Shown piece after piece: positions 1 to 3,682 of a DNA stretch of 24,000 bases (its first letter is position 1; each line of letters starts with the position of its first letter). The stretch lies in NCBI GenBank assembly GCA_036705045.1, contig JAUBTR010000001.1; one strand, 5' to 3'. The notes beneath the pieces are model-generated. The model saw only the letters and a list, made by a program, of their open reading frames with translations, searched no databases and was not told where the DNA came from. A program made the translations under genes and the position numbers. This DNA is from Microcoleus sp. BR0-C5 (GTDB lineage Bacteria; Cyanobacteriota; Cyanobacteriia; Cyanobacteriales; Microcoleaceae).

Positions 1-1
1 A

Positions 2-106
2 CTTAAAGAAGAACTCGAAAGCAACAGCAATCAAAGCAGACAGCTATCTTGGGCGGATATTAAATTTTCTACTCCCGATGTAGGAGATAAAAATAGCAAA
101 GATTAG
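2..106 (+). CDS. 3' end of an upstream CDS entering from the left edge (identity unknown; dndC is only a positional guess)
   Basis: An open frame runs from the window edge: LKEELESNSNQSRQLSWADIKFSTPDVGDKNSKD, then TAG at 104-106. There is no start codon in the window and 34 aa is too short to recognise. dndD and dndE follow on the same strand. Confidence 0.25.
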   Translation, partial: LKEELESNSNQSRQLSWADIKFSTPDVGDKNSKD

Positions 107-153
107 GTCAATAATGTCGATCGGGCGATCGGGCGATCGGGCTTTGGGGCATC

Positions 154-262
154 GGGCTAACCCGAAGATCCGCCGGGGATTCAAATCCCCGTCTCATAGC
201 AAAAGTCGGTTAAAACCGACTGAAGAACCAAATCACACGATCGCCGATTTCAGTCCTTTTGA
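154..262 (+). repeat. REPIN-like repeat, copy 1 (divergent, truncated in the second module)
   Basis: Carries the left module (CCGGGGATTCAAATCCCCGTCTCATAGCAAAAGTCGGTTAAAACCGACTGAAGAACC) and breaks off after CAGTCCTTTT. It is preceded by short GATCGGGC tandem copies at about 116-160. Confidence 0.7.
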
Positions 263-276
263 TAGCACTTTGGGGC

Positions 277-500
277 GATCGGGCTTACCCACAAGCCCGC
301 CGGGGATTGAAATCCCCGTCTCATAGCGAAAGTCGGTTAAAACCGACTGAAGAACCAAATCAAACGATCGCCGATTTCAGTCCTCTTCAAGAGGACTTCA
401 GCTATGAGACAGGGATTTCAATCCCTGTCGGACTCTCGGATCATGGGACACGCCGATCGACCCCGATCGCACTCAAGACCCCGATTGTCCTCTGCAAGTA
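277..500 (+). repeat. REPIN-like repeat, copy 2 (core 281-434 plus shared tail)
   Basis: The 154-bp core has two inverted ~50-nt modules. The tail CCGATCGACCCCGATCGCACTCAAGACCCCGATTGTCCTCTGCAAG is shared with copy 3. Confidence 0.85.
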
Positions 501-713
501 GATCGGGCTTACCCACAAGCCCGCCGGGGATTGAAATCCCCGTCTCATAGCGAAAGTCGGTTAAAACCGACTGAACAACCAGATTTAACGATCACCGACT
601 TCAGTCCTCTTTCAGAGGACTTTCGCTATGAGACAGGGATTTCAATCCCTGTCGGACTGTCGAACTCACCGATCGACCCCGATCGCACTCAAGACCCCGA
701 TTGTCCTCTGCAA
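501..713 (+). repeat. REPIN-like repeat, copy 3 (core 505-658 plus tail)
   Basis: By eye, 501-677 is identical to 714-890 (period 213 bp). Hairpins match those in the other copies. Confidence 0.9.
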
Positions 714-905
714 GATCGGGCTTACCCACAAGCCCGCCGGGGATTGAAATCCCCGTCTCATAGCGAAAGTCGGTTAAAACCGACTGAACAACCAGATTTA
801 ACGATCACCGACTTCAGTCCTCTTTCAGAGGACTTTCGCTATGAGACAGGGATTTCAATCCCTGTCGGACTGTCGAACTCACCGATCGACTCTCGATTGA
901 ACCTG
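714..905 (+). repeat. REPIN-like repeat, copy 4 (core 718-871), tandem duplicate of copy 3
   Basis: Perfect match to copy 3 through 890, then it diverges. It ends about 40 bp before the transposase ATG. Confidence 0.9.
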
Positions 906-946
906 AGTATTCGCTGACATCTATCTAAAAAAAAGGAAAAATCTTT

Positions 947-1399
947 ATGGCAATGTGGCGGCTGTACTATCATTTAGTTTGGGCAACAAAAGAGCGACAG
1001 CCTCTCATATCTCCCGCAAAAGAAACCGAACTTTACTCTTATATCACCGGCAAAGCAGACGCCATCAATTGCATCCTTCATGCGATCGGCGGCACAGAAA
1101 ATCACATCCACTTAATAGTTTCCATTCCTCCGACACAATCGATCGCTGAATTCGTTAAAAATATTAAAGGTAGCAGCAGCCGTTATCTCAATCAAACTTT
1201 GCAAAATCCCAATAAATTTTCGTGGCAAGAAGGATACGGAGTATTTTCTTTAGGACAAAAACAACTAGACTCAGCAGTCGCTTATGTGATAAATCAAAAG
1301 GAACATCACTTGCAAAAAACGACAAACTCACACCTCGAACAAATGACTCATCAAGACGATTCACCCACCCGGTGGCACCCAAATTCACCAGAGAATTAA
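947..1399 (+). CDS. IS200-like Y1 (HUH) transposase, RAYT-like
   Basis: 150 aa. N-terminal YYHLVWATKERQPLI, HUH motif HIHLIV, KGSSSRYLN, and a catalytic-Tyr region WQEGYGVFSLG. AAGGA lies upstream of the ATG. The gene is flanked on both sides by the same palindromic repeat. Confidence 0.8.
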   Translation: MAMWRLYYHLVWATKERQPLISPAKETELYSYITGKADAINCILHAIGGTENHIHLIVSIPPTQSIAEFVKNIKGSSSRYLNQTLQNPNKFSWQEGYGVFSLGQKQLDSAVAYVINQKEHHLQKTTNSHLEQMTHQDDSPTRWHPNSPEN

Positions 1400-1461
1400 T
1401 TGAAAAATATTGGCAGACTCCCCGATTTTCGGCATCTCCTGCTATCGGGACTCTTAGGGGC

Positions 1462-1652
1462 GATCGGGCTTACCCATAAGCCCGCCGGGGATTGAAATCC
1501 CCGTCTCATAGCAAAAGTCGGTTAAAACCGACTCAACAGCCAAATCAAACGCCCGCCGACTTCAGTCCTCTTTCAGAGGACTTCAGCTATGAGACAGGGA
1601 TTTCAATCCCTGTCGGACTATGAAACTCGCCGATCGACCCCGATCGCACCCA
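1462..1652 (+). repeat. REPIN-like repeat, copy 5 (core 1466-1619 plus partial tail)
   Basis: Same 154-bp core as copies 2-4 with a few substitutions. It lies downstream of the transposase and ends 35-65 bp before the dndD ATG. Confidence 0.85.
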
Positions 1653-1684
1653 CCAACTTTCATCCCATCTCAACAACATCTACA

Positions 1685-3682
1685 ATGCAATTCCTCGAAC
1701 TCGTCCTCAAAAACTTCGGCCCCTATGCAGGCACCCAAACCATCAATCTTCGCCCCGAAAAAGACGGAAATCCCTGCCCAGTCATTTTATTTGGCGGCAT
1801 GAATGGCGGCGGCAAAACCACCCTCATGGACGCCATTCGCCTCGCCCTCTACGGTGGCCGCGCCCAATGTTCCACCCGAGGCAATTTAAGCTACAGCGAC
1901 TTTCTCAATCAATGCGTCAACCGCCACACTCCCCCATTAGAAGATACCCGCGTCGAACTAACATTTGAACAAGTCCAAGATGACAAATTAGCTCAATTCA
2001 AAATAGTTAGATACTGGAAAAAATTAGACATCAAAGACACCTTAAGCATTCTCATATACAGCGAGATTGTCAGCGATTGGTGGTCGGACAAAGCAATTAC
2101 TAACACTTGGGACGAATACATCGAAACCCTTTTGCCCGTCGGGATATCTAACCTATTTCTGTTTGACGGGGAACAAGTAAAAGAACTGGCCGAACTCGAA
2201 ACACCGCCAGAGTTTGTCGTCGGGGCGATTAAATCTCTTTTAGGTTTAGAATTAGCAGAACGCCTCGCCGTCGATTTAGAAATTTTAGCCGGCCGCAAGC
2301 GGAAAGAAATTGCTGGCAAAAAAGACTTGGCTGCTTTAGAGAAAATTGAACAAACTTTTAAGAAGATTACTGATGAAATAGACTTAGCTAAGCAAGAACA
2401 AGCCAGCTTTAAAAACGAGTTAGATAAAGCTCAAAAAAATCAGCAACAAGCATCAGAAAAGTTTATTTATGAAGGCGGGAAAATTGCCGCCGATCGCAGT
2501 CAGCTAGACAGACAGCTAAACGACTACAGGAATCAGGCAGAAAAAACCCGTCAATCCATGATGGAAGTAGCCTCAAATACGCTCCCACTAGCATTAATTT
2601 CGCCCTTGCTAAGTGAAGCAAAAATTCAAGCAGAAACCGAAGCCAGCCAGCAGCAAGCAAAGATTGCCCAAAATGTTATCAAACAAAGAAGCGATCGCCT
2701 TCTAAACTATATCGCGGAAATCTCGTTAAATCCCCAACAGCTAGATAAAATTCAAGACTTCATCCGCCAAGAAAACCAAGAACTCGAACATCAAGCCGGA
2801 ACAGACTCCCCGCCCTGGATGAACGCCGACAACAACAGCATCCAGCAACTAGAAAACCTGCTTAGCTACCAAATCAAAGCCCAGCAAATTCTAGCCCGCG
2901 ACCAAATAGAAGAAATCAAAAGCATCGAAGCAGAAATAGACTTCACAGACAGACAACTCGCAGCCGCAGCTTCCCCCGAAGCCTACGAAAAACTAGAAGA
3001 TGAGGTCAGGAAAGCCCAAAAAGCAGTCGCTATCGCATCCGCAGCCTGCGAATCAGCCAACCGCCGCGTCGATGAATTAGAGAGAGAATTAGCCAAAAAC
3101 CAAAAAGAACTAGAAAACTACAGCAGCGAATACATCACCATCAGAAACAGCCAACACGTCATCGCTTCTATCGCCAAAGCCCAAGCTACGCTCAAACTCT
3201 TTAAAGAAAAACTCACCCTCAAAAAACTCAACAAACTCGAAATAGAAATTACCGACTGTTTCCGCTACCTGTTGCACAAAACCGACCTCGTGCACAGAGT
3301 TGCGATCGACACTGACACATTTAGCCTCTCAATTTACGATCCAGAAGGTAAACCGGTACCCAAACACCGACTTTCAGCCGGGGAAAAACAATTGCTGGCG
3401 ATCGCCTTTTTGTGGGGATTGGCTAGAGTATCGGGGAGACAATTGCCAGTGGCGATCGACACTCCCTTGGGCCGCCTCGACTCCTCCCACAGAAACAACC
3501 TAGTGGAACGCTATTTCCCCTCGGCCAGCCACCAAGTCATCCTGCTTTCTACCGATACGGAAATTAGAAAAGTAGAATACGAAAAACTCCAAGAATTAGA
3601 GGCGATCGCCCACAGCTACCTCCTCAAATACGACTCGACCAAACACCAAACCACGGTCGAAAAAGGTTACTTCTGGGAATAA
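1685..3682 (+). CDS. dndD: DNA sulfur modification protein DndD (SMC/ABC-type ATPase)
   Basis: MQFLELVLKNFGPYAG...ILFGGMNGGGKTTLMDAIRLALYG (Walker A), a long coiled-coil middle, LSAGEKQLLAIAF (ABC signature) and PVAIDTPLGRLD (Walker B/D-loop). The ORF-track start at 1589 lies inside repeat copy 5. ATG 1685 gives the canonical DndD N-terminus. Confidence 0.85.
   Translation: MQFLELVLKNFGPYAGTQTINLRPEKDGNPCPVILFGGMNGGGKTTLMDAIRLALYGGRAQCSTRGNLSYSDFLNQCVNRHTPPLEDTRVELTFEQVQDDKLAQFKIVRYWKKLDIKDTLSILIYSEIVSDWWSDKAITNTWDEYIETLLPVGISNLFLFDGEQVKELAELETPPEFVVGAIKSLLGLELAERLAVDLEILAGRKRKEIAGKKDLAALEKIEQTFKKITDEIDLAKQEQASFKNELDKAQKNQQQASEKFIYEGGKIAADRSQLDRQLNDYRNQAEKTRQSMMEVASNTLPLALISPLLSEAKIQAETEASQQQAKIAQNVIKQRSDRLLNYIAEISLNPQQLDKIQDFIRQENQELEHQAGTDSPPWMNADNNSIQQLENLLSYQIKAQQILARDQIEEIKSIEAEIDFTDRQLAAAASPEAYEKLEDEVRKAQKAVAIASAACESANRRVDELERELAKNQKELENYSSEYITIRNSQHVIASIAKAQATLKLFKEKLTLKKLNKLEIEITDCFRYLLHKTDLVHRVAIDTDTFSLSIYDPEGKPVPKHRLSAGEKQLLAIAFLWGLARVSGRQLPVAIDTPLGRLDSSHRNNLVERYFPSASHQVILLSTDTEIRKVEYEKLQELEAIAHSYLLKYDSTKHQTTVEKGYFWE

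Follow-up and report, generated by a model that had tools for sequence, protein, structure and literature searches.

A Y1 transposase-like gene and its dispersed two-hairpin repeats in Microcoleus: a probable partnership of the REP/RAYT type on a different branch of the Y1 family

Results

A cassette of inverted repeats and one Y1 gene between dndC and dndD

The 24,000-nt stretch of Microcoleus sp. BR0-C5 DNA analyzed here (assembly GCA_036705045.1, contig JAUBTR010000001.1), hereafter the window, carries near its start a cassette in which a single gene for a Y1 transposase-like protein is embedded in copies of an inverted repeat. An initial annotation of the window had placed 154-bp copies of this repeat at 281-434, 505-658, 718-871 and 1466-1619, with a truncated copy at 154-262, and our repeat search indeed finds the family there, as a 178-nt repeat at 276-453, 500-677, 713-890 and 1461-1638 whose copies are 87-100% identical, together with a partial copy at 149-326. 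The perfect tandem duplication that had been described, with a period of 213 bp, is equally real, since 500-677 and 713-890 are 100% identical. Every full copy is composed of two inverted 41-nt arms that are 85-90% complementary, and the Y1 open reading frame (ORF; 947-1399) is placed between the third and the fourth full copies. A profile search (nhmmer) with the module defined below, which occurs alone or as doublets of two inverted modules, detects nine modules in the window, namely a singlet and three doublets upstream of the Y1 gene and one doublet downstream of it. The borders of the cassette are set by comparison with relatives, in which homology of the flanks ends at window positions ~105 and ~1673. 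The features are as follows, with the two neighboring genes last.

106..1672, + strand: variable cassette with the repeats and the Y1 gene, in the spacer between the dndC stop and the dndD start (comparison with the spacers of relatives)
169..220, + strand: module singlet, within the truncated first repeat copy (nhmmer, 44 bits)
294..434: doublet 1, module on + at 294-347 and on - at 379-434 (repeat search and nhmmer)
518..658: doublet 2, module on + at 518-571 and on - at 603-658 (repeat search and nhmmer; long-hairpin fold, z = -11)
731..871: doublet 3, module on + at 731-784 and on - at 816-871 (exact tandem copy of doublet 2, 100% identity)
947..1399, + strand: Y1 HUH transposase-like gene, single copy, 150 aa, fitting TnpA-Y1 subclass 1.2 (Pfam PF01797, motifs)
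1479..1619: doublet 4, downstream of the Y1 gene, module on + at 1479-1531 and on - at 1564-1619 (repeat search and nhmmer)
1..103, + strand: 3' end of dndC, context (C-terminal 218 aa against TIGR03183 DndC positions 320-446 of 447, E = 3e-41)
1685..3682, + strand: dndD, context (TIGR03185, E = 3e-194, 647 bits against a cut-off of 246)

The repeat unit is a two-hairpin module

Alignment of the arms reveals that the repeat unit is a module of ~56 nt in which a conserved linker connects two hairpins. It is made up of a 5' foot, AGTCCGCC, then hairpin 1, whose TGAA loop tops a stem of 7 bp, then the linker, which is unpaired and reads GTCTCATAGC-N-AAAGTC, and finally hairpin 2 (AGTC-stem-loop-stem-GACT). 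Two inverted modules separated by a short spacer form a doublet of 120-170 nt. The 154-bp core that had been proposed as the unit is thus a genuine repeat, but the natural units are the 56-nt module and the inverted doublet. Of the local hairpins listed at the same time, GGGCTT-ACCCAC-AAGCCC is peculiar to the copies beside the gene. The expectation that the core folds into one long hairpin holds, with a 145-nt core folded as single-stranded DNA reaching -43.4 kcal/mol against -15.0 +/- 2.6 for shuffled sequences (z = -11). Single modules folded as DNA also stand out (z = -5.2 and -5.7).

Stem positions vary in a compensatory manner across the 220 copies of the BR0-C5 genome. In hairpin 1, GC (125 copies) and AT (93) occur at pair 13:20, and TA (144), AT (65) and CG (9) at pair 14:19, with non-Watson-Crick combinations in just 2 copies at each of the two pairs. 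The stem of hairpin 2 is perfect in 190 of the 220 copies, even though its inner part exists in at least four variants, and in modules of other genera both stems are altered while the linker and the foot are unchanged. The structure of the hairpins is therefore under selection. The foot AGTCCGCC contains no GT[AG]G guide tetranucleotide, that is, the GTAG or GTGG that characterizes class-2 REP-associated tyrosine transposases (RAYT; REP, repetitive extragenic palindrome) is absent. When positions 1-2000 were scanned against Rfam 15 at E <= 1, no model reached its gathering score, and the sub-threshold scores, all to plant microRNA hairpin models, were judged to be generic hairpin matches and rejected as an identity for the repeat.

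Modules are dispersed between genes, mostly as inverted doublets

An iterated nhmmer census of the 7.48-Mb BR0-C5 draft genome (G000) found the 220 modules at 107 loci on many contigs, 73 of these loci being doublets. The repeat is hence not confined to the cassette and, as had been anticipated, it is dispersed and nearly always intergenic, with 7% of module bases lying inside ORFs of at least 150 aa, which make up 74% of the genome. Gaps between convergent genes are somewhat enriched among module loci (28% vs 19%) and gaps between divergent genes are depleted (11% vs 20%). Neighboring modules are oriented '+-' in 93 cases and '-+' in 10. Moreover, 23 doublets have 12-nt spacers that are mostly variants of AATGAGTTCTTC or of its reverse complement, which points to copying of whole doublets and not of single modules. 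This population displays the inverted extragenic units with a short spacer that are typical of REPINs (inverted REP doublets), but not their abundant master sequence.

The flanks of the doublets bear no signature of a MITE (a miniature transposable element with inverted repeats). A target-site duplication of at least 4 nt was found at 0 of 70 doublets, and a direct flank repeat of 2-3 nt at 1 of 70, which is under the shuffled control. We could thus reject a MITE of a DDE transposon, defined by terminal inverted repeats and target-site duplication. Two outer flanks recur among the doublets, many of which have one or the other, and one of these flanks adjoins a separate palindrome with a GTAG tag. 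A family of GTAG-tagged palindromes, GTAG[AG]GA[AC]ACGGCA, has 61 copies in the genome, 18 of them within 150 nt of a module (for example in L048:520-1015). With recurrent outer flanks and adjoining GTAG palindromes, the doublets thus frequently sit nested within composite patches of repeats.

The Y1 protein fits subclass 1.2 of TnpA-Y1

The product of 947-1399 belongs to the Y1 superfamily (Pfam Y1_Tnp PF01797, E = 8e-30) and, as first described, is IS200-like, with the motifs expected of an HUH (histidine-hydrophobic-histidine) enzyme. These are the HUH motif NHIHLIV (H53-I-H55), SWQEGYG (W93-Q94) and the tyrosine motif YVINQKEHH (Y113). Among 46 homologues H53 and H55 are invariant and Y113 nearly so (>= 90%), and the NHIH, WQ and Tyr motifs are kept across 120 homologues; those that are named come from Microcoleus and other cyanobacteria. 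The protein passes the NCBIfam IS200 model NF033573 (90 bits against a cut-off of 55) and fails the RAYT model REP_Tyr_transpos NF047646 (26.4 bits against 80). Its sequence matches in the Protein Data Bank (PDB) are IS608, ISDra2 and IS200 TnpA, with none to the E. coli RAYT structure 4ER8 at E <= 1, and the fold comparison agrees, since with an AlphaFold model (pLDDT, the model confidence, 78.7) the IS608, ISDra2 and IS200 TnpA structures occupy ranks 1-29 (E ~1e-9) and 4ER8 comes at rank 30.

The gene is present as a single copy in BR0-C5. Its nearest paralogues found by tblastn, on contigs C31 and C182, are 30% and 25% identical and of the IS200 type, so the genome holds no identical multi-copy insertion sequence (IS) of this kind, in keeping with the low copy number that had been suspected. 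By its sequence, the protein fits TnpA-Y1 subclass 1.2 and not class 2, the RAYT proper (Y---NP). Subclass 1.2 was described by Quentin et al. (2018, BMC Genomics 19:475, PMC6006769) as lacking IS properties, with the entry 'REP: no' in their Table 1, and its traits are a length of ~148 aa, Y---Q--HH, WQ and (D/N)H[IV]H motifs, low copy number and a cyanobacterial or Bacteroidetes host. In the automatic search of that study, a hairpin counted as a REP only with a GTAG or GTGG tag lying 0-2 nt on its 5' side. When we searched the literature, no paper after that study turned up on subclass 1.2, nor did any on cyanobacterial REPINs and RAYTs.

Modules flank each of the 26 inspected orthologs of the Y1 gene

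In 14 genomes with an ortholog of 59-100% identity, eight of the genus and six of other genera, modules lie on both sides of the gene at every locus. Twelve more orthologous loci from other genera all have module matches beside the gene, which are weak in G126 and G150. The linkage thus extends to 26 of 26 inspected orthologous loci (>= 59% identity) from many genera of the order, whereas modules lie near none of 16 loci with IS200-type or other distant Y1 genes, and none were found near the Y1 genes of BR0-C5 on C31, C182 and C190. These module-flanked orthologs do not fit the 'no REP' descriptor published for subclass 1.2, and it is this descriptor that they contradict, not the membership of the protein in the subclass. 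In a phylogenetic tree, the module-flanked Y1 genes form one clade (100/100) that is separate from IS200-type genes (95/100). As to the placement that had been sought relative to IS200 and RAYT proteins, the protein falls in the IS200-proximal subclass 1.2, outside the RAYT family proper.

Gene and modules also co-occur. All 79 genomes of the genus contain modules (6-313 copies, with a reversed-pattern control yielding 0), and 22 of them contain the ortholog, nearly always as one copy. Module numbers are higher where the gene is present (median 119.5, minimum 48) than where it is absent (median 43), and 32 of the 57 genomes without it fall below 48. For an order-wide sample we used 97 genomes of other genera, of which four intermediates (53-56% identity) were set aside, leaving 93. 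At least four linker motifs are present in 14 of 19 genomes with an ortholog vs 4 of 74 without, one of those four having a broken copy. The association across the 93 genomes has an odds ratio of 49 and a naive p-value of 2e-9, which is overstated because kin are not independent, and the co-occurrence pattern covers many families.

Other Y1 genes are accompanied by repeats of their own. A second Y1 lineage of ~40% identity, present in G019, G012 and G013 (L015:947-2164, L016:60-1094 and L017:1082-2071), has a different two-hairpin module, composed of GTCCGCGGAGGCGGAC, the linker ATTGTTTGTGTAG and CCGCGGTTTCAACCGCCGGG. Nine remnants of this linker exist in BR0-C5, which is without the second-lineage gene. 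Outside the window, contig C190 of the same genome (1-1500) carries a class-2 RAYT-like gene (HVH, WQ, YIINNP, like subclass 2.4) bracketed by GTAG-tagged palindromes (GTAGGGGCGGGTTTCACCAAC...), which represents a separate, classical REP/RAYT system. Since the repeats at the subclass 1.2, ~40% lineage and C190 genes are distinct, each Y1 lineage has its own repeat.

The spacer between dndC and dndD is a hot spot

The dndC-dndD spacer (window 104-1684) exists in three states among close relatives of the genus. It consists of ~110 nt of unrelated sequence in G068 and G007, it is ~950 nt long in G074, G081, G001 and G094, in which the insert carries a gene for a 227-aa protein of the GxxExxY family (TIGR04256, 87 bits), and it holds the 1.57-kb Y1 cassette in BR0-C5 and twelve others. 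Flank alignment shows directly that six other species of the genus have the cassette between their dndC and dndD, and adjacent contig coordinates, which place the Y1 gene beside dndD, bring the total for the genus to thirteen species. In G038, which belongs to another family, the cassette is inverted between the same dndC and dndD genes. The cassette thus has the behavior of a single block within a recombination hot spot and not that of an IS that multiplies. The tandem doublets flanking the Y1 gene number from one to six or more depending on the species, and in G105 and G143 long tandem arrays adjoin the gene; these arrays therefore expand and contract quickly.

Doublets come and go among relatives

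We compared seven doublet loci of BR0-C5 with the corresponding sites of five relatives, and at these loci doublets are present in some relatives and absent or replaced in others. At two orthologous sites, the full doublet of BR0-C5 is matched in G024 or G074 by the foot, hairpin 1 and the foot alone, 32 nt in length (L045:601-722 vs L057; L053:601-739 vs L090). Since hairpin 1 is palindromic, this form could arise by slippage between both copies of hairpin 1 or by an excision made by the enzyme. Solo hairpins were considered as a common singlet class and dismissed, with only 1-3 such solos in BR0-C5.

Discussion

Co-option by bacteria of a transposase along with a population of non-autonomous repeats is known chiefly from REP/RAYT systems. 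The evidence presented here makes it probable that the Y1 gene and the two-hairpin modules form a REP/RAYT-like partnership, albeit with an enzyme from another branch of the Y1 (HUH) family. The REPIN/RAYT-type arrangement put forward in the initial annotation is upheld in its architecture and in the linkage of gene and repeats, but not in the family of the protein, which scores well below the RAYT cut-off and fits subclass 1.2. With this amendment, it describes how the system is built and probably how it works.

Several observations weigh against such a partnership. Modules occur throughout the 79 genomes of the genus, only 22 of which have the gene, and two module-rich genomes, G001 (222 modules) and G018 (160), are without the gene in their assemblies, so the modules either outlast loss of the gene or do not need it. 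The non-independence of kin, which inflates the association p-value, belongs here as well. The Y1 gene is not strictly immobile, since it is found at other loci in G050, G043, G051, G086 and G009, and it is patchily present among very close relatives. In the BR0-C5 census, the 220 modules comprise 199 different sequences, the most frequent of them with 4 copies, that is, there is no dominant master copy and no recent burst. A clean insertion was seen at none of the seven loci compared with five relatives, where the flanks are replaced, nested with other repeats or cut to hairpin 1; the case for mobility is therefore one of presence and absence, not of exact junctions. Finally, we found no biochemical or genetic evidence for the activity of subclass 1.2, either here or in the literature.

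We infer that the enzyme binds, cleaves and mobilizes the repeats, and any benefit to the host would likewise be an inference. In the mechanism that we propose, the product of 947-1399 would be a small single-strand-DNA endonuclease/ligase with the 56-nt module as its candidate substrate. The Y1 gene, found once per genome and at a fixed locus in many species, would no longer act as an IS, and the REPIN-like doublet would be the unit that spreads. The enzyme, presumably a dimer, would bind the hairpins in single-stranded DNA such as the lagging-strand template, and by cutting and rejoining at conserved positions beside them it could copy, move or excise doublets without target-site duplication.

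An ordinary IS200/IS605 insertion sequence with tnpA only, in which the gene with its ends would itself be the mobile unit, by chance at one copy here, and whose non-autonomous deletion derivatives would be the doublets, is an unlikely explanation, although the protein passes the IS200 model and has its best sequence and fold matches in the IS608 and ISDra2 TnpA. This explanation is also in line with the different loci of the gene in different lineages, its presence in 22 of 79 genomes of the genus and the swapping of the entire cassette with the dndC-dndD spacer as one block. However, the gene is single copy in the genomes searched, where the few additional matches are never identical copies but paralogues that have diverged (in G128 and G038) or, in G044, a partial fragment; it shares one common locus in thirteen species, and its orthologs diverge alongside their hosts. 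Fixed left and right ends are lacking, because from one species to another the gene is flanked by modules in different numbers and order, and we did not find several near-identical copies of the gene plus its ends. Moreover, the Y1 clade stands apart from IS200-type genes of the same genomes (95/100), and Quentin et al. (PMC6006769) describe subclass 1.2 as devoid of IS properties.

We regard as slightly less likely still that the modules serve the host as structural or regulatory elements (terminators, mRNA stabilizers or protein-binding sites) spread by recombination or gene conversion, with the Y1 gene merely sitting in hot spots. The enrichment between convergent genes and depletion between divergent ones would suit such elements, as would the persistence of modules in the 57 genomes of the genus without the gene, and other repeats and a GxxExxY gene likewise accumulate in the spacers examined, which are hot spots of a general kind. 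Yet chance fails to explain why all 26 orthologs are flanked when none of the 16 other Y1 loci is, and the order-wide co-occurrence would be left unexplained. Hairpins are, besides, what Y1 HUH enzymes recognize as substrates, as is established for IS608, ISDra2 and E. coli TnpA-REP (PDB 2VJV, 2XM3 and 4ER8). A functional tie of the cassette to dnd phosphorothioation, for example as a regulator or accessory nuclease, appears very improbable. It would make sense of where the cassette lies in thirteen species of the genus and, inverted, in G038, namely between dndC and dndD, but it is largely rejected because most orthologs of other genera, and several in the genus, are away from dnd genes. In addition, DndD is present in 74 of 79 genomes against 22 for the Y1 gene, and the same spacer accepts other unrelated inserts.

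Going beyond the REP/RAYT-like partnership itself, we tentatively suggest, as a possibility that falls a little short of an even chance, that subclass 1.2 is an independent domestication of an IS200-type transposase, with its own kind of REPIN that is read via the unpaired linker instead of GTAG and has been kept across the cyanobacterial order. If this is true, the two sites at which a single hairpin with both terminal arms stands in for the full doublet could be footprints of excision by the enzyme, with cleavage in or beside hairpin 1. To our knowledge, recognition of the repeat by a REP/RAYT enzyme is understood for one case only, that of E. coli (PDB 4ER8). The system described here would be a second, independent test case for the rules of Y1 recognition and for REPIN-like population dynamics, with the same lifestyle in the IS200-proximal subclass 1.2, reported to be without partner repeats, and a substrate of different design (covarying hairpins and an invariant linker). 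Since 22 of 79 sequenced species have the gene and 57 do not, the genus is also a natural experiment on the fate of repeats after gene loss. There is a practical side for annotation, too, in that such genes are labeled 'IS200/IS605 family transposase' and the repeats break assemblies.

Among known systems, the closest by protein is subclass 1.2 as published (PMC6006769), with which the gene shares a length of 148-150 aa, the motifs (family consensus YVKNQKAHH), low copy number, a cyanobacterial host and the lack of typical IS200 ends, but from which it differs in always being flanked by a dispersed two-hairpin repeat without a GTAG/GTGG tag. The IS200/IS605 elements (IS608, ISDra2, IS200) are closest in sequence and fold, and they too cause no target-site duplication and have an enzyme that acts on subterminal hairpins in single-stranded DNA; unlike them, the cassette lacks tnpB and a defined pair of ends, its gene is single copy and fixed in position, and doublets that have no gene exist in the hundreds. 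Class 3 and subclass 2.6 genes with 'atypical secondary structures' (PMC6006769) resemble it by their structured, non-GTAG flanking repeats, which are of high copy number in the genome and were found by manual inspection, although the protein classes, phyla and repeat sequences differ. The REP/REPIN-RAYT systems (E. coli TnpA-REP/YafM, 4ER8; the REPINs of Pseudomonas, Bertels and Rainey 2011, PMC3116915; Nunvar 2010; Bertels 2017, PMC5581495) differ by a protein that here is of class 1, with Y---Q--HH instead of Y---NP and 4ER8 only as the 30th fold match, and by a repeat that is here a 56-nt two-hairpin unit with a linker, lacking a dominant master sequence, instead of one GTAG-tagged hairpin. 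What they have in common with the cassette is a single-copy, largely fixed Y1 gene with palindromic repeats of its own, which are extragenic, number in the hundreds and form inverted doublets with a short spacer and no target-site duplication.

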